Assembly (NCBI GenBank): GCA_963807635.1
Contig: CAWEDJ010000067.1
Coordinates: forward strand, 81,918-145,917
Origin: an uncultured cyanobacterium
GTDB taxonomy: Bacteria > Cyanobacteriota > Cyanobacteriia > Cyanobacteriales > Microcystaceae
Length of the DNA stretch: 64,000 bases
Direction of reading: 5' to 3'
Position 1 is the first letter of the stretch, and the number at the start of each line of letters is the position of its first letter. Below the pieces are notes generated by a model. The model saw only the letters and a program-made list of their open reading frames with translations. It was not told the origin of the DNA and made no database searches. Positions 36,418 through 56,120 of the stretch are shown here, one piece after another. Made by a program: the position numbers and the translations under genes.

Positions 36418-38485
36418 CTACTTCCAATCATCCCAGGTTTCATTAAAAATAGAAGTATTGGGAAAAGTTGTGGGATTATCATTATCATTTAATAATAATT
36501 GTAATTCCTGTAATTTTTTCTGCTGTACTAATGGTTCTTGCACTAACTGAAACGGCATGATTTTTTGATCCAATGCAAAAGCCGCCACTGTTCCCGCCGC
36601 CGCCCCCGATGACCACTCATAGGAATGCACACGATAGGCCGCTGAGGCAATATGACTCACCGCGATCGCCTTTCCTGCGACGAGTAAATTATCAATTTTC
36701 TGGGGAATCATGGCCCGCAAGGGAATCTGAAAAGGATAGGTCTGCGCTCCTCCCTGACGTTCGCCCTCTTTTTCTGTGTTACCTGGCGTTTCGGGGGGTG
36801 AAAGCGTCATACAGGGATGAAAATCGATCGCGTAATGGCCAATTCCCACTGAATCGGCATAAATCGTTGAACGTTTGCGACGTTGGATAGCATCGGGAGC
36901 AACTTTCCCACTCAGCACATCTAAGCCCTCTAAACCCGCTAAGGTTGCCTGTAATTGACGATAGGTTTCAGGAGAAAGAGCTTGGCGGTAATACTCGTCT
37001 TGATAATTGCGTCGAGAAATATCAATTTCCGAAATTGTGAACCCATCGGGGTAATAAAAGGACGGACGGCCAATGATGCGGCGAGATTCTCGAATATAGG
37101 GATATTTCGATAATCCATGTACGGTTCCCATCGGTGAATCTAAACCCGACAGAAAACGGTTATTGGGATCGGGCTTTTTCACATCTGGCCCTAGCTGGGA
37201 ATCCGTTGTACCTGCAACAAACCAATAATAAAAACCGAGGGAATGTTCTTCTGCTTTTTTCAGAGCATCAGTTCGTAACCCCCCTAACCATCCCCTAGGT
37301 TGGAGTTGACCCGTTGCCTTGAGTTGATCTTCCGTGTAGATAAAATTATCCTTGGCGGTGCCTGGTCGATAATCATTACCCCATGTCCAATTTTGCATAG
37401 AAATATTACCAGGACTGGGTTTATGATAGCGAATTCCGCCATAGGTTAGAGTTTCTCCCTGTTGGGGACTCCAAATTTGACGATAGGTAAACAGTAAATC
37501 GGGATTAGCAAAACGGGGTAGTTCGTAACTATAGTAGGGTTCATACTGGGGATAAAAAGGCGGCATGGTTTGGGGCTGAGGTTCCGCCGTTTTTTCCATG
37601 GCAAAGGTATAGGTAAACCCTTGGGTGCAGTAGGGATCGGGGACTTTACTCGATGCAGAGGGTTCGAGATAGGATTGGGGATCAATGCCGACTCGGTAGG
37701 GGACATCGGCTAGGGCAATTAATTCTCCTGTTTCTGTGGCTTCGATGATATACCAGGGAGCGGGTTCCGTCGTTCGACTAGGTTTGGGGACAAACTGAAT
37801 AATAGTTTTGTTAAAAAGGGCTGAATTTTCGTAACGATAACTATCTTCTATGGTTTGAGAAAGGGGATAGGTATTGAGAGGGGGCGCACCTGGGGCGGGA
37901 CTGTGTTGAATCGCGATCGCTTTGGTAATTTGTTTTCCTGACCCAATGGGTTTAATTTTTAAATCCTTAATTACCGTATTGGGAAACCATTTCAGGGTTC
38001 CTTGGCCTTTTCTTTCGGCATTTTTTAACTCAGCCATGAGAACAGTATTACCATCGGAAGGCAAAAAACAGGATTCACTGACCCAACAATCCCCAGGATT
38101 ACGACTATCATATTCTTGTTGAATGCGTCGCCGAAAATCCAAATAACCACGCGGATAAAAGAGCATTTTTGCCTGGGTGGGTCGTTCATCCAGGGCAAAG
38201 GTTCCCTGGGAAGAAATTTGTCCTCCGACCCAATCGGTAATCTCGGTTAAACAAACGGTTTTTCCTGCCAATAATCCTTCATAGGCCTGCCGCACTTCCT
38301 GCCAAACCAGCCCCCACGATCAGCATTTCACATTCCACTTTTTGATCGGGCGATCGCGGAGAGATCTGCTCCGTAGTGCGCTTAGTCTCTGCCAGCACAA
38401 AAACAGACATTTCCTGCCAAAACATCAGGGACAGGGGAATAATTGCCAGGAGATTGAGCCGAGATTTTGCTTGCTTGTGACCCAT
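36418..38485 (-). CDS. Exported FAD-dependent oxidoreductase; frameshift near 38286
   Basis: Signal-like N-terminus and Rossmann LIVGAGLAG in ORF 38279-38617; continues as YEGLLAG..TDWVGGQ, YIRESRRI, FQIPLRAMIP in ORF 36418-38295. Confidence 0.82.
38356..38379. repeat. 24-nt HIP1-inserted small dispersed repeat (copy 1)
   Basis: GCGATC|GCGGAGAGATCTGCTCCGTAGTGC|GC; 20/24 identical to the copy at 55381. Confidence 0.7.
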
Positions 38486-48649: not shown

Positions 48650-51600
48650 ATGGAATTCAAAGATTTACCATTGACTGAAAGAGAAATATTAAAAGGTTCA
48701 GCTAAGATTTTGATTGTCGATGATTCTGAAAGCGATCGCTTTAGCTTCGTGCGGTATTTACAATCAGACAAAGAAAATTCCTATCATATTATTGAAGCGG
48801 AAACTTTAGAAGAAGGGTTGGAACTATGGCGATCTCAGCAACCCGATGTTGTATTACTAGATATTAATCTACCCGATGGCGACGGTTTAGAATTTTTAAG
48901 AGAAATTGGGACTGATCAAGCAATCAATAAGCTACCCGTGATTATGTTGACGGGACAAGGAGATGAGCGTATTGCAGTACGAGCGATGAAATTAGGAGCG
49001 GCGGATTATTTAATCAAAAAAGATATTACAGCCCTTTTACTTTTGACCACTATTCGTCAGGTACAAGAGAATGATTTACTCTTCCAACAACTGAGGCGAT
49101 CGCAACAGCAACAAACGATAATTGCCTCAATGGCTCTACACATCCGTCGGTCTCTCAACTTTGAAGAGGTTGCTAATCAGACCGTCCAGGAAATACGTCG
49201 CTTTTTAGAGGCGGATCGGACGATCATTTACCGATTCACCCCTGATATGAGCGGGGTAATTGTTGCCGAAGCCGTTATTCCCCCTTGGTTGCCCTGCTTG
49301 AATGCTCAAGTCGAAGATACTTGTTTTCAAGAAAATATGGGTGGAGAATATCAACAGGGTAAAGTTTTTGCGGCGGCGGATATTTATGCGGCGAATCTAA
49401 CAGAGTGCCATATCCAACTCCTGGAAAGATTTCAGGTCAAGGCCAATCTCGTCGTTCCTATCTTATTGAATGGTAATAATACGCTCTGGGGATTATTGAT
49501 CGCCCATCAATGTTCGGCTCCCCGTCAATGGCACGAAGAAGACATTCAACTATTGCATCAGTTATCCGTCCATTTAGCGATCGCCCTGCAACAAGCCGAA
49601 CTTTATCAAAATCTGCAAACCATGAATTCCTTGCTAGAGGAGAAAGTACAGGAGCGCACTAAGAAATTACAACTGCAAAATAAAGTTTTAGAAGAGATCC
49701 ATGATGGTGTGGTAACGACTGATCTTAATGGCATCATTCTCAGTTGGAATCGTGGCTCAGAAAAACTCTATGGCTATACAGAGAATGAGGTATTGGGGCG
49801 GAATGTAGCTTTTATCTATGAAGATGCCGAAGCTCTGCAAGTCGAGGTGATTGCTCCTCTGTTCGATAAGGGTAGCCATGCTGCGGAAGTTGTTGTCCGT
49901 TCTAAATCAGGAAAACGCATCTATGTTAGCTTGCACCTTTCTGTCGTCAGAGATGAGCAGGGTGACATTACCCATTTGATTGGTTGTGCTAATGACATTA
50001 GCGATCGCAAACGTGCCGAACAGGAACTTCAGCAACTCAACCAAGAGCTAGAAACAAAAGTCTTAGAACGCACCCAAGAACTAGCACAGGTTAATAGTCT
50101 CCAACGAGCTATCTTAGAAAGTGCCAATTACGCAATCATTTCCACCGACTTAGATGGCATCATTCAGACCTGTAATCATTCCGTCGAAAGGATGCTTGGT
50201 TACAAACCCTCAGAACTAATTGGCAAAGTGACACCTGAGATCATTCACGATCGCCAAGAGGTCATTGATAGAGCCGCAACTCTCTCTGCTGAACTGGATC
50301 AAGATATTCCTGTTGGGTTTGAAGTGTTTGTTGCCAAATCCCGTCAAGGTATTGTTAGCGAACAAGAATGGACTTATATCCGCAAAGATGATTCTCGCTT
50401 TCCCGTGTTGATATCTGTCACTGCCCTTAAGAATGATAACCAACAAATTATTGGTTTCTTAGGCATTGCGAAAGATATTAGCGATCGCAAACAAGCAGAA
50501 GAAGCCTTACGAGAAAGCGAAAGACGTTTTGTAACTTTAGCGGAGGCGGCTCCCGTTGGTATTTTCCAGACAGATGTAATGGGTCAAACTATTTATGTCA
50601 ATCCTGCTTGGGGAGATATTACGGGGCGCGAACTCGAAGCGGCTCTAGGGAGTGGTTGGCTCGAAACTATCCATCCCGAAGATCGCCAATGGATTTTGAG
50701 AGAATCAAGTGAGGGAATTAAGCAACGGAGAAGTTTCCAAACGGAGGCCAGATGCCTTAGACCTGATGGCACGATTACCTGGTTTTACTGTCAGGTAAGC
50801 CCCAAATTAGACTCTAACAATAATGTTTTGGGTTACATTGGCACTTTAACGGATATTAGCGATCGCAAACAAGCAGAACAGGAACTTTTAGAAAATCAGC
50901 GATTGATTCAACAAATTGCCGATTCATCCCCCAATGTCCTCTATCTTTATGATGTACAACAACAACGTAATGCCTATGCTAACCGCGAGATTTTAAAGAC
51001 GCTAGGTTACTCAGCGATCGAAGTCCAAACAATAGGGGCGAATTGGTTGCCGAGTGTCATGCACCCCGATGATCTTGCGCCCACTTTAGAACACTTTGAA
51101 AAATTGAAACGGGCTGATGATGACGAAATTTTCTCCCATGAATATCGCTTGAGACACGCCAACGGAGAATGGCGATATTTCTATAGTCGAGATCTAATCT
51201 TCAGTCGAGATACGCAGGGAGAAGTCAGGCTGATTATTGGAACGGCTCAAGATATTACCGATCGCAAACTAGCGGAAGTCCAACTCCAACAAAAGAATAT
51301 TGAACTCCAACAATTGGTGCAACTGCGCGAGGAAGCCCTCACTCTACGCGAAGATATGTCCAACATGATTGTCCACGATTTGCGTAATCCTTTGTCGGCA
51401 ATGCTTCTATCGGCTGAAATTATTCAAAGATACGGCGATCGCCCCGATCAACAAGCGTTGATGGCCAAAAAAGCAGAGCAAATTTTAAAATCTGGTAACC
51501 GACTGAAAGCGATGATTGATAGTTTGCTGTTAATGGCCAAATTAGAATCAGGAAAAATTCTTTTTAATCCAGTGCCAACAGATTTACACGAGTTAGGGAC

Positions 51601-52014
51601 TGCGATCGTAAGCGATTTTGAATTAACCGCCCAGTCCCAAAGGATTGAGCTAAAAGGAGAACTACCTAGCCCAGGTAATAGCATTATTATTGATGCCGTG
51701 ATTCTACGTCGAGTCATTGAAAACTTAATCTCCAATGCCCTAAAATTTTCTCCTCCGAATAGTCAAGTATGGCTACAAATCGAGTATTTCCCCGAAAATC
51801 ATCTGCGAGTTAAGGTGATAGATAATGGGCCAGGCGTAAGTCCAGATCAAGCAGAGGACATCTTTAAAAAGTTTGAAATCGGAACCATTAAACAAAATGT
51901 TTCTCAAATTGGTTTAGGTTTAGCCTTCTGTAAAATGGCAGTAGAAGCTCAAGGAGGCACTTTAGCGATCGCGCCCAATCAGCCCAGGGTTCTATTTTTA
52001 CCGTAGAAATTTGA
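48650..52014 (+). CDS. Hybrid sensor kinase REC-GAF(cyanobacteriochrome, DXCF)-PAS x4-HisKA-HATPase
   Basis: LIVDD/LLD/K receiver; GAF with EDTCF and ECH; four PAS/PAC units ending DISDRK or DITDRK; HDLRNPL, NALKF, DNGPG, GLGL. The terminal GSIFTVEI* needs one added base near 51985. Confidence 0.9.
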
Positions 52015-52039: not shown

Positions 52040-53242
52040 TTATTCTAGTCCTAAAGAATTTTCAAAGGCTTCAATTACGATATCCGAAACTTCTTTAATG
52101 CGATAACGACAAGCCATTGTTTCAGCACAATTAAAGCTTCCTTTTTCCCAATATTTATTGCTTCCTGCACCGCCACCACACAATCCAAAATAATCACAGG
52201 TTTGTTGACACAATTCGACACCTGCTTTCATATCCTGATAAATAGTCAGAAATTTTTCAGTGTTACAAATAGACTCAAAACTATCCGTTAAAACATTACC
52301 GAAGACAAAATCACCATATTTTTCCGTTTTAACTGATAACAATTCAGGATCAAAGGTCGAAAAATTACCCTGATTATCAATACTGACAATCACAAAAGGA
52401 TGATTCATATCGGTCTTATCTAAGCGTTCTTCAGTATAAATCAAACCACAAATTGCTTCAAATTCTCGGACTTGAAATCCACCTTCACTCTGGGTTGTTA
52501 GTTCCCAAAAGCGTTTAATGAATGCTCGATAGCGTTCTACTACCCCCTCTTTTTCTAAGGAAGATTTGAGATGAATTCCTTCTGTTTCTTCCATATTAAA
52601 GCCCACATCTCTGAGATTATGATCATAGAAAAATGTAAACATTTCATCAGGATAATTAACAGAATCTTCCGTTAAAACCGCAATCACGTTATGACAAATT
52701 TCATTTTTCTGTAAATATTCAATTCCCCGCATGGCGGCGGCATGACTCCCTAACCCTGTCCGTGTTTTACGATGGACATCATGGATAAAGTCGGGGCCAT
52801 CAATACTCACGCCGATATCTACCTTAAATTCCTTAAATAAATCACACCAATCCTGATTAATTAAGATGGCATTTGTTTGAAAAGAATGATTAAATTGTAA
52901 ATTTTTATGATTATATTTTTGGCTACATTCAGCAATTAATTTAAAGGCTTCTCGATAAAAACTAATAGGAGCCGCTAGAGGTTCGCCTGCGTGCCAACAA
53001 ATGGTAAAGTTTTCTGTTGTAAAGGGACTTTCAAATATGGCTTTACAAATGGGATCAATTAAATCGAGAGAGAGTTGATTTTTGAGATGGCGATCGGGTA
53101 AATAGCAATAATCACAATCTAGGTTGCAAAAAGAGGTGGGTTGAATAACAGCTAGGGTTAGCGGCCCAAATTTAGAGGTGTCTAGAAAATTATCTTCTTG
53201 TTGTAAATTTTGTTTTTTGAGATCCAATGAAACTAATGTCAT
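52040..53242 (-). CDS. grrM: Cyclophane-forming radical SAM/SPASM peptide maturase (GrrM/OscB family)
   Basis: QPTSFCNLDCDYCY, WHAGEP, FSTFDPELL, CQQTCDYFGLCGGGAGSNKYWE..C..ETMAC. Confidence 0.93.
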   Translation of the reverse strand: MTLVSLDLKKQNLQQEDNFLDTSKFGPLTLAVIQPTSFCNLDCDYCYLPDRHLKNQLSLDLIDPICKAIFESPFTTENFTICWHAGEPLAAPISFYREAFKLIAECSQKYNHKNLQFNHSFQTNAILINQDWCDLFKEFKVDIGVSIDGPDFIHDVHRKTRTGLGSHAAAMRGIEYLQKNEICHNVIAVLTEDSVNYPDEMFTFFYDHNLRDVGFNMEETEGIHLKSSLEKEGVVERYRAFIKRFWELTTQSEGGFQVREFEAICGLIYTEERLDKTDMNHPFVIVSIDNQGNFSTFDPELLSVKTEKYGDFVFGNVLTDSFESICNTEKFLTIYQDMKAGVELCQQTCDYFGLCGGGAGSNKYWEKGSFNCAETMACRYRIKEVSDIVIEAFENSLGLE

Positions 53243-53359
53243 TTTTTAATCTTTTGCTAGGAATAGTAAAAATAGAAGAATTAAGATAAAAACCGTTTCT
53301 GATCTGATTATTTGTCTTTTAGATGAATTACAAGATTTTGTGTTTAAATCCTACAGACT

Positions 53360-53387
53360 ATAAGGACATAATATATTATGTCCCTAC
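53360..53387. repeat. GTAG-type REP-like palindrome
   Basis: Reverse complement GTAGGGACATAATATATTATGTCCTTAT matches 4959-4987. Confidence 0.7.
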
Positions 53388-53440
53388 AAATATTGTGTCT
53401 GTTTCAAAAATCTGTGATTCGCCAGTATTTACAAAGGGAT

Positions 53441-53839
53441 TTAAAAACGATTCAAAAAGCCACCATTACGCCAACCAGGAGAATTTAGAAATCCACCATT
53501 GCCCCAGGGACGACTGTTAAAAAATCCGCCCCCATCTCTCCAACCGTTCCCCCAACCACCGCCGCCACGACGATTCACAAAACTGCCACCCCCCCGACCA
53601 TTGACCCAACCGATCGCGATGTCTCCATTGCCAGGAGCCTCTGACGCATTATTAGGTAACTGACTTTCTTTTGCTTTTAGGGTGGCTGAAATTCGGGTTA
53701 AACGGCCTTCGATGGAGCTTTGGGTTTGAGGGGTTGCCGTTGGGGAAATTTGGGGCGCGATCGCGGCATCAACGGGGGAACTAAAGGCAGATAAAGCCAC
53801 TAAAAAGCTGGCCCAGCCCATTTGAGTTTTAATATTCAA
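53441..53839 (-). CDS. grrA: GrrA/OscA-family Gly-rich RiPP precursor 1
   Basis: TTG start with GGAGGA RBS; leader SIEGRLTRIS; core with nine [WF]-x-[ND] motifs. Confidence 0.9.
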   Translation of the reverse strand: MNIKTQMGWASFLVALSAFSSPVDAAIAPQISPTATPQTQSSIEGRLTRISATLKAKESQLPNNASEAPGNGDIAIGWVNGRGGGSFVNRRGGGGWGNGWRDGGGFFNSRPWGNGGFLNSPGWRNGGFLNRF

Positions 53840-53906
53840 AGTTTATCCTCCTGATTTTTTTAATCAAAATTTAGCAATTCACTATAGACGAAATTAAAAT
53901 TATGCC

Positions 53907-53944
53907 AAAAGATGAGTTAGATACATTAAACTAACCCATCTTTA
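53907..53944 (-). terminator. Hairpin between the two precursor genes (terminator or stabiliser)
   Basis: AAAAGATGAGTTAG / CTAACCCATCTTT inverted repeat. Confidence 0.55.
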
Positions 53945-53970
53945 GAGATAAAGTAGGGCTAAGATTGAAT

Positions 53971-54297
53971 TTAACGGCGATTCAAGAAACCGCCACCATC
54001 ACTCCAACCATTGCGCCAACCGCCACCACGATTAGCATTAACAAAGCCACCGCCACCACGAACATTGGCAAAACCGAGAGCTAGGTTTCCATTCCCAGGC
54101 GTTTCTGAGGTTTTCTCAGGGAACTGACTTTCCTTGGCTTTTAGAGTAGCAGAAATTCGAGTTAAACGATTTTCAATAGAGGCTTGAGTTTGAGTTGTTG
54201 GGGAAGTTTGGGGCGCGATCGCCGCATCTACGGGTAAATTAAAAGCTGAGAGAGCAACTAAGAAGCTTGCCCAGCCCATTTGAGTCTTAATATTCAT
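53971..54297 (-). CDS. grrA: GrrA/OscA-family Gly-rich RiPP precursor 2
   Basis: Leader nearly identical to precursor 1; core motifs FAN, FVN, WRN, WSD, FLN. Confidence 0.9.
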   Translation of the reverse strand: MNIKTQMGWASFLVALSAFNLPVDAAIAPQTSPTTQTQASIENRLTRISATLKAKESQFPEKTSETPGNGNLALGFANVRGGGGFVNANRGGGWRNGWSDGGGFLNRR

Positions 54298-54339
54298 GGA
54301 TTTCCTGATTGTGTTTAGCAAAAACTACTGAGTAACCCA

Positions 54340-55236
54340 TTATTTGGTTTCAGCAGGCGGAATTTGTTCGTGGGTAATGACGGTGTAATTAAAGAAACTA
54401 CGAATAACATCAGGATCAACGATGGTAATGCCATTGGGGCCAAGCCAGCGATCGACAATGCCACTGGCAGTTTTCTCTTGGGCTAAATAGTTCTCCATAA
54501 ACCCAACAATGGAGAAGTTTACTAAACGCAAAAAGGTGGGATCATGCTGACCTATCATACAAGCAACGCCATAACTGGCAAACGGAGTCTGGGGAACTAA
54601 TTTTGTATCCAATAATCCTGCTTTTTGACGCGCACCGTCGAGCAGAATACTATCTCCCGCGACACCATCCACCTTTCCTTCTTTCAGGGCAATTAATCCC
54701 GCCTCTAGGTTTTCTACAGGGACAAGTTTTGCCTTGGGTTGGGCCAGTTTGATCGCTTTTTCGCTAACAGTATTCGGAATAACCGCAATGCGTTTATCGA
54801 TTAAGGATTCAGGTGCGTCTAAATTGCTATTTTTGGGGACTAACAAGCGGATTCCCGTGATGCTGTAACTAACCGAGAAATCTATATACTTGTCTCTTGC
54901 CCAGGTGAAAGCCGTGTCACAGGTAATATCAATTTCTCCTGTGAGCAATTTGGGAATGCGATCGGCGATGGTTTTGGCTTCAACGGTCTCTAATGTAACG
55001 GGTTTACCCAGTTCTTTTTCTAATTGTTGCCGAACCAAGTTGACAATGCTCATGCTATAGCCATCAAGTTCGCCCTTGTCATTGACGTAGGAATAGGGAA
55101 TCAGTTCGGAGTTAATACCGAGGGTTAGTACCCCCGTTCTCGCGACTTTTTCCATCACTGTTTCCGCTAAAGTTGCCTTGGTTCCCGCTAAAATCAACAA
55201 CAGGCTTAAAAGGGGAATTGAAAGTTTTTTGAACAT
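54340..55236 (-). CDS. grrP: GrrP-like orphan extracellular solute-binding protein (SBP family 3)
   Basis: Signal peptide; ARTGVLT, AFTWARDKYIDFSVSY; directly upstream of the grrA genes with no permease nearby. Confidence 0.85.
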   Translation of the reverse strand: MFKKLSIPLLSLLLILAGTKATLAETVMEKVARTGVLTLGINSELIPYSYVNDKGELDGYSMSIVNLVRQQLEKELGKPVTLETVEAKTIADRIPKLLTGEIDITCDTAFTWARDKYIDFSVSYSITGIRLLVPKNSNLDAPESLIDKRIAVIPNTVSEKAIKLAQPKAKLVPVENLEAGLIALKEGKVDGVAGDSILLDGARQKAGLLDTKLVPQTPFASYGVACMIGQHDPTFLRLVNFSIVGFMENYLAQEKTASGIVDRWLGPNGITIVDPDVIRSFFNYTVITHEQIPPAETK

Positions 55237-55355
55237 TACGTCTCCTCACAAGTATCTCAATCCAGTCTAAGGCTAGAAATGCTTATTAGTTCAGCCTTTA
55301 TATATATTTTATTTTTCACGATGATTTGCCTTGAGATATCAAGCAGGAGATTATT

Positions 55356-56120
55356 TTGGTTACAATTCGGTGCGGCGATCCCGCAGGGATCTGCTCCGCA
55401 GTGCGCGTTTTTAGGAATATTGAAGCGGTTATTTTCGATAAAGATGGAACCCTAGAAGACTCTCAGGCTTATTTGCGGGAATTGGGAATCAAACGCGCTC
55501 GGTTGATTGATGCTCAGATTCCAGGCATTGGCGAACCCCTATTAATGGCTTTTGGGATGCAAGATAATCAACTCGATCCAGCAGGTTTAATGGCGGTGGG
55601 CAGTCGTCACGAAAATGAAATTGCGGCGGCGGCCTATATTGCCGAAACAGGAAGAAGTTGGTTTGAATCCCTCGCGATCGCCCGTTCTAGCTTTAATGAT
55701 GCCGATCAGTATTGTCAGCCTGATATGAATTCATCTCCCATGTTTGCAGGAAGTTTAGATGTGATTCAAACGCTCTCGGATGCGGGTTTAAAATTAGCCA
55801 TTCTTTCGGCGGCCAGTACGCCCAGTGTGGAAAGATTTGTGAAGGAACATCAACTTTCGCCCTATTTATCCCTACTGATGGGAGCCGAGCAGGGATTAAC
55901 AAAACCCAATCCTGTCTTTTTTCTCAAAGCCTGTGAAGCCTTGGGAGTAAAACCCGAAGTCACGTTAATGGTGGGAGATTCCCAGGGGGATATGGAAATG
56001 TCTAAAAAAGCTAAGGCGGCTGGGGCGATCGGGATTTGCTGGGGAAAAGTCCCGAAAACCCATCTCCAAAAAGCGGACGTTATTATTAATCATTTAGACC
56101 AAATTCAGGTAAAACGCTAG
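55356..56120 (+). CDS. HAD-family hydrolase
   Basis: IFDKDGTL, KPNP, MVGDSQGD. Confidence 0.9.
   Translation: MVTIRCGDPAGICSAVRVFRNIEAVIFDKDGTLEDSQAYLRELGIKRARLIDAQIPGIGEPLLMAFGMQDNQLDPAGLMAVGSRHENEIAAAAYIAETGRSWFESLAIARSSFNDADQYCQPDMNSSPMFAGSLDVIQTLSDAGLKLAILSAASTPSVERFVKEHQLSPYLSLLMGAEQGLTKPNPVFFLKACEALGVKPEVTLMVGDSQGDMEMSKKAKAAGAIGICWGKVPKTHLQKADVIINHLDQIQVKR
55381..55404. repeat. 24-nt HIP1-inserted small dispersed repeat (copy 2)
   Basis: GCGATC|CCGCAGGGATCTGCTCCGCAGTGC|GC; removal restores HIP1 and the reading CGDRVF. Confidence 0.75.

Follow-up and report, generated by a model that had tools for sequence, protein, structure and literature searches.

The window analysed here is a stretch of 64,000 nucleotides from an uncultured cyanobacterium of the Microcystaceae (contig CAWEDJ010000067.1 of assembly GCA_963807635.1, positions 81,918 to 145,917). 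The source genome, G000, comprises 4.03 Mb with 41% GC and contains 4758 sites of HIP1, the cyanobacterial palindrome GCGATCGC. Two genes of the window, coding for a HAD-family hydrolase and a FAD-dependent oxidoreductase, each carry a 24-nt insert that splits a HIP1 site and preserves the reading frame. The features are the following:

36418..38485, minus strand (38485->36418): host gene, FAD-dependent oxidoreductase (Pfam FAD_oxidored; alignment with 6 relatives)
38350..38381, plus strand: second copy with its split HIP1, insert at 38355-38378, antisense to the host gene
55356..56120, plus strand: host gene, HAD-family hydrolase, frame intact (Pfam Hydrolase and HAD_2)
55375..55379, plus strand: left half of the split HIP1 target (GCGAT); HIP1 is intact at the same codon in the orthologues L003 and L004
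55380..55403, plus strand: 24-nt insert in the HAD gene, adding PAGICSAV; the register may slide one base to the right
55404..55406, plus strand: right half of the split HIP1 target (CGC), from the sequence and the orthologues
55380..55388, plus strand: hairpin 1, a 3-bp stem with a C-GNA-G loop, which can extend by pairing with GAT of the target
55391..55401, minus strand: hairpin 2, a 4-bp stem; its TNC loop on the plus strand is a C-GNA-G loop on the minus strand

An earlier note, made from the letters of this DNA, had claimed a 24-nt element inserted in frame into HIP1 in two genes. Both 32-mers, consisting of the insert and the split HIP1, are present at 55375-55406 and 38350-38381, and 20 of the 24 insert bases are identical. 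The 17-nt core shared by the two copies matches twice in the window against 0.11 matches expected, and none of 100 shuffles gave two or more. Excision of the HAD copy in silico restores, as predicted, CGDRVFRNIEAV, which the closest orthologues also have. The junction can be set at either of two adjacent positions, GCGATC/GC being equivalent to GCGAT/CGC and to GCG^ATCGC on the opposite strand; in a minus-strand reading, all copies appear as GCG, insert, ATCGC. The proposed gain of eight residues holds for both genes, but the FAD copy is antisense and adds TTEQISPR, unlike the PAGICSAV of the HAD gene. This second copy is older and degenerate, and its left HIP1 has been restored to the full octamer. 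In another public run, one contig (X4, record 28) covers 54818-55513 with 0 gaps, and the X2 and X3 contigs cross the FAD site without a 24-nt gap. The presence of filled alleles in contigs of other public runs shows that the inserts are not artefacts of a single assembly. Public RNA runs contained small shares only of the HAD stretch.

The 24 nt are an insertion, missing from all 28 HAD orthologous loci found in other genomes. HIP1 is intact at the insert codon in five of these orthologues; in the three closest ones it is either intact or altered at one position. A structure model built from 28 sequences (pLDDT 93; an earlier one from 3 sequences reached 35 and was uninformative) places the eight residues in a predicted N-terminal beta-hairpin loop, between strands 2-6 and 17-22 and before the DxD catalytic motif. 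The FAD site is filled in G000, G004 and G099, empty with an intact HIP1 in G002, G003 and G005, and empty without HIP1 in G001. Its insert probably lies directly after a signal peptide. Divergence at this site amounts to 5 of 24 positions in the insert and to 7 and 2 of 276 in the flanks, the insert decaying faster than its surroundings. In this assembly, the frame of the FAD gene is broken near 38288, at 62 nt downstream of the insert, by an additional base that all six relatives aligned lack; the gene is a pseudogene, or the assembly is wrong here.

G000 contains four clear 24-nt copies, against 0 for a reversed-pattern control. Two of the four lie in the window, a third in trpF of contig C41 (Pfam PRAI), and the fourth is intergenic on C99. 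The trpF site is filled in G000 and G003, empty with an intact HIP1 in G001 and G004, and empty without HIP1 in G002 and G005. No single tree accommodates the presence patterns of both the FAD and the trpF site, implying that alleles were exchanged or that the element was precisely excised or inserted more than once. No clean empty allele of the C99 copy was found among the relatives. A fifth, degenerate candidate on C29 is filled in both relatives found, and a candidate on C75 was dropped, its relatives being of the same length.

The exact 24-nt presence or absence at three genes, with empty alleles that retain an intact HIP1, argues for mobility. This is almost certainly a non-autonomous, SDR5-like mini mobile element, copied into GCG^ATCGC without target duplication, which supports the HIP1-targeted micro-element of the earlier note. 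It has no coding capacity. Elhai et al. in 2008 reportedly described SDR5 as small dispersed repeat 5 of Nostocaceae, and SDR4, SDR5 and SDR6 are said to share a secondary structure held by compensatory changes.

A close 24-nt pattern has matches in 21 of 89 genomes of the same family, and a relaxed one in 19 of 401 genomes across the phylum, with 0 control matches. At least 120 loci were found in the genome collection, 80 of them with names shown. The named hosts among the matches listed include Crocosphaera, Prochloron, Paraprochloron, Xenococcus, Hyella, Lusitaniella, Synechocystis, Snowella and others, all non-heterocystous. One locus labelled Sphingobacterium probably represents a misbinned contig, since its flanking genes cluster with cyanobacterial loci. 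The element is also carried by plasmids of Synechocystis (including pSYSM of PCC 6803), Stanieria and Picosynechococcus. Copy number is low, from 1 to 30 per genome. After removal of identical and orthologous flanks, 180 copies were reduced to 157 distinct sites, whose flanks are unrelated. Altered flanks were detected in 14 copies from 8 of 54 genomes, which had been picked because they carry copies; all 14 retain HIP1-like halves, and the search of the 54 genomes for copies off HIP1 gave none outside HIP1-like flanks.

Several variants deserve mention. Four Prochloron copies, all from G481, carry an additional AT at their right joint, resulting in a 26-nt variant; the same genome also has the 24-nt type nested in a 21-nt type (loci L263, L269, L271, L272, L128 and L111 for the two kinds together). 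In G050 (L036, L054, L060) the element lies beside an IS630-like transposase gene with identical flanks at several places, and therefore appears to have been amplified together with the IS that carries it. Viral contigs and phage records did not yield the 24-nt type; at least 119 viral matches to a loose pattern were rejected as mostly unpaired, GC-rich chance matches. Five metagenome matches lie off HIP1; four counted contigs have 0-1 HIP1, and all five look non-cyanobacterial. Locus L430 (match at 1691-1716) has a perfect 24-nt core on a non-cyanobacterial-looking contig of 59% GC with no HIP1. The core is found at the 3' terminus of a gene for a response regulator, enclosed by a different 5-bp inverted repeat, and may be a relative using another target.

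The consensus of the 157 sites is GCGAT / CYC GNA GRG AT CYGC TNC GCRG YR / CGC. At the variable pair 7/13 of hairpin 1, T-A occurs in 83 sites, C-G in 65, C-A and T-G in one each and other combinations in 7; at pair 18/26 of hairpin 2, the counts are 123 C-G, 31 T-A, 2 C-A and 1 T-G. The search pattern admitted all four combinations at each variable pair, so compensatory pairs were not imposed by it. The G-T wobble is as rare as the C-A mismatch at these pairs. The loops are GNA at 153 and TNC at 149 of the 157 sites, and the GNA loop is found on whichever strand meets each hairpin first. In a pairing test with 45 of the 157 sites, hand-picked for spread and 36 of them distinct, 98.3% of cells were paired in the three-helix structure; none of 500 shuffles was as high, and slid controls reached 22-62%. 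The covariation reflects few haplotypes, so the independent changes are few. Taken individually, the copies are no more stably folded than shuffles (z -0.2 to -1.1), the minimum energy belongs to another fold (-6.7 kcal/mol, vs -3.3 for the three-way fold), and RNAalifold recovered hairpin 1 and set hairpin 2 in another register. The C-GNA-G mini-hairpin is very stable in DNA and far weaker in RNA, according to the accessible part of PMC13037366. The covariation shows that it is a shape that is conserved, namely GCG-AT-(hairpin 1)-spacer-(hairpin 2)-NN-CGC, its mini-loops being C-GNA-G of the DNA type.

When G000 was scanned by structure only, a 21-nt family emerged at 27 positions, e.g., C60:32577-32605, C2:28876-28904 and C36:61101-61171. 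Many of its copies are in frame in genes, and a HIP1-like site is regenerated on both sides; a triple tandem occurs on C36 of G000 and a double in G004. One 21-mer site is occupied in G000, G003 and G004 and empty with an intact HIP1 in G001, G002 and G005; a second site has no HIP1 in its empty relatives. A third family, also of 21 nt, has four positions in G000 (C67:34638-34666, C27:17919-17947, C2:33010-33038 and C28:85122-85150) and is present in G002-G004, G036 and G084-G088 as well. Forms of 22 and 23 nt and nested insertions were also found. A generic twin-hairpin pattern has matches in 44 of the 89 family genomes and in 0 controls; genera g11 (0/17 genomes) and g14 (0/5) have none, in counts not scaled to HIP1 content. 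With a loose pattern applied to five larger genomes, a 21-nt insert was detected in two, each with about 80 copies. It also matches Nostoc plasmids, including those of N. punctiforme, and fits the published description of SDR5. In family f7, which carries the 21-mer, 0 of 45 genomes have the 24-nt pattern. All of the families have the same junction and the same layout, GCG-AT-(hairpin)-spacer-(hairpin)-NN-CGC, with differing sequences and lengths.

Tentatively preferred as the way in which the element moves, though short of probable, is a DNA-level strand transfer by a putative trans-acting enzyme reading the mini-hairpins. The element would travel as DNA, and the putative enzyme, HUH/Y1-like or tyrosine-recombinase-like, would act in trans and recognise the mini-hairpins. 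The folded element would swap one strand with an extruded HIP1 (GCG-AT-CGC). With its head joined to its tail, the 24-mer would form a dumbbell with 9+9 stem bases, two triloops and the joint in a 2x2 mismatch, as worked out by hand. The second strand would then be fixed via repair or replication, and copies would last where eight residues or an intergenic position are harmless, and decay afterwards. HUH enzymes do recognise folded single-stranded hairpins and their loops, as stated in the available portion of PMC8266576.

The co-occurrence of a recombinase or RT gene with the repeat, which the earlier note had proposed as a test, was searched for across genomes, and none of these genes accounts for the distribution of the element. 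When 648 ORFs from the surroundings of 180 copies were clustered, the only groups to emerge were orthologous loci and Uma2-like paralogues, and ten regions with close copy pairs have no gene in common. Four small plasmids with the element share no mobile-enzyme gene common to all four; an Rpn neighbour on two plasmids was discarded as a single orthologous locus. In element-positive versus element-negative genomes, GTAG-RAYT was detected in 16/44 vs 18/45, IS110 in 18/44 vs 16/45 and IS200-type TnpA in 37/44 vs 26/45 (hand count), in profiles where kin genomes are not independent and many genomes are drafts. The complete genomes G085 and G088 have elements and no match with either Y1 query, and an orphan Y1 gene is present in 2 of 89 genomes. 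G000 itself has three RAYT loci (L295-L298 set), flanked by their own GTAG repeats and two of them with broken frames, plus one orphan Y1 gene without such repeats, and 42 GTAGGGGCG-type palindromes. Copies show no replication-strand bias (54:46 in G192, from 100 of 122 copies, and 10:11 in G477), which counts against an IS608-type route, since a lagging-strand route would predict one. G475 and G476, reached via Paraprochloron and Prochloron loci, gave no match for dnaA, and the strand test is weak there. The metagenome collection contained no head-to-tail (permuted) junction, no donor locus outside HIP1 was found in cyanobacteria, and a search of G000 for a parent transposon gave no half-elements around a transposase. 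A broader and doubtful proposal is that the 21-26 nt HIP1 inserts constitute a superfamily of the smallest transposable DNAs, dumbbell single-stranded minicircles, with a putative enzyme that would read C-GNA-G and cut HIP1.

The element could also be spread by host machinery without any dedicated transposase. Repair or natural transformation would give rise to a nick or break directed by HIP1 or by methylation, and a twin-hairpin oligonucleotide that resists nucleases, derived from an existing copy or incoming DNA, would be used to patch it. This is possible rather than likely. The lack of a linked or co-occurring mobile enzyme and of a strand bias is in line with it, as is the conflicting presence between loci, by which alleles must recombine or be excised, and the extra AT of the four Prochloron copies is what a 2-nt staggered cut would leave. 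HIP1 has been tied to methylation-dependent transformation and site-specific recombination, and directed HIP1 cutting has been proposed for SDR5, in the accessible parts of PMC13756078 and PMC4390886. However, the two genera of the same family without the generic pattern speak against general host functions, and one joint and one fold kept across sequence families suggest a specific recogniser.

Improbable is an RNA route, in which an RT, of the group II intron type or another, would use an element-bearing transcript as template for reverse transcription into a nicked HIP1 site. Group II intron RTs do occur in G000, and RT genes were detected in 39/44 element-positive vs 29/45 element-negative genomes (p 0.012, kinship ignored), but genus g11 has RTs in 15/17 genomes and elements in 0/17, and five element-positive genomes gave no RT match. 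G-U wobble is not favoured, and GNA triloops are weak in RNA (PMC13037366, accessible part); moreover, there is no Rfam match, and no template locus off HIP1 in cyanobacteria.

The element had initially been thought to serve in adding peptides to proteins, a purpose that its relation to host genes does not support. Of the 157 sites, 53 were dropped for having fewer than 800 bases on one side or both; of the 104 retained, 55 lie within ORFs of at least 150 aa, against 3300 of 4623 HIP1 sites in G000; the comparison is rough, sites and HIP1 reference coming from differing genomes. In orientation to the host gene, 31 are sense and 24 antisense (p 0.42), and the added peptides differ with frame and strand. 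With about half of the sites outside long ORFs, random orientation, varying peptides and the decay of the FAD insert, the in-frame length is read as a survival filter and not as evidence of purpose, and the peptide looks like a tolerated side effect. That the sequence is not mobile at all, being a selected functional module (peptide or regulatory hairpin) or the result of fresh fold-back errors at each site, is very improbable: most frames are open, stops being concentrated in two of the six, and the frame is preserved in host genes such as trpF, but the same observations on ORFs, peptides and FAD divergence stand against it, identical 24-mers at unrelated sites in different families would not result from independent errors, and the empty alleles largely refute it.

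As a mobile element, the 24-nt insert is best compared with SDR5, which is inserted between the third and fourth base of HIP1 and only within HIP1 (PMC4390886, available part) and is 21 nt long, with a function described as not known (PMC13756078, available part). The 24-nt element inserts at the identical position without duplication and shares the restriction to HIP1, its altered-flank copies all keeping HIP1-like halves. The Nostoc-type 21-mer, derived here and used in place of the published SDR5 consensus, has the same layout, with two 3-bp hairpins and a 2-nt tail, and twin hairpins with compensatory pairs occur in both. They differ in length (24 vs 21 nt) and have unrelated stem sequences; the GNA loops are on opposite strands in the 24-nt element and both on one strand in the SDR5 type. 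The Nostoc-type 21-mer has 0 matches in G000 at up to 5 mismatches, and the hosts of the 24-nt element are non-heterocystous and lie beyond Nostocaceae. A 2018 paper, in its accessible part, reported no SDR-like repeat outside Nostocaceae (PMC5861425). The 24-nt element works like SDR5, yet its length, sequence and host range place it outside SDR5.

Other small elements are less similar. REP/REPIN sequences with TnpA-REP (RAYT) and the ends of IS200/IS605 are likewise short, hairpin-forming and non-autonomous, with HUH chemistry on folded single strands as a candidate mechanism (PMC8266576, in the part available). In contrast to REP/RAYT systems, the 24-nt consensus has no GTAG foot, and its copies are often inside genes, use one fixed target and neither flank RAYT genes nor co-occur with them. 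MITEs, of 70-300 bp with terminal repeats of 15-30 bp (PMC3733652, as far as accessible), such as the cyanobacterial Nezha, are also non-coding and mobilised in trans. Unlike them, the element has 24 bp, no parent transposon found in G000 and no target duplication, except for the AT-extended variant in 4 copies. Fungal mitochondrial double-hairpin elements are tiny mobile inserts with two hairpins, of organellar location; the likeness lies in the small twin-hairpin form and comes from descriptions, not from sequence or target. A literature search gave no account of a 24-nt HIP1 insert or its mobiliser, in a survey where most subscription papers were beyond reach and the supplements of Elhai et al. 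2008 may list related repeats. New here is an SDR5-kind twin-hairpin element that is specific for HIP1 and widespread outside Nostocaceae.

The mobility of SDRs has been without explanation since 2008, and the junction and fold shared across families narrow what an enzyme must recognise. The copy on pSYSM in Synechocystis PCC 6803, along with copies in other transformable strains, makes insertion and excision testable. The inserts account for odd insertions of 7-8 residues in cyanobacterial proteins and bear on what cuts HIP1. If the superfamily and minicircle proposal were true, it would provide a new chemistry for precise short insertions and a long-sought protein acting on HIP1.

The window contains two further loci of interest. 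At 48650-52006, a multi-PAS histidine kinase gene repeats a HIP1-containing coding motif at its domain ends, which leads to spurious read joints; an apparent repeat at 50-51 kb, considered as CRISPR, was ruled out, as it is PAS-domain coding sequence. At 52040-55236, on the minus strand, there is a cyclophane RiPP cluster with a GrrM/OscB radical SAM maturase, two GrrA/OscA1 precursors and GrrP.
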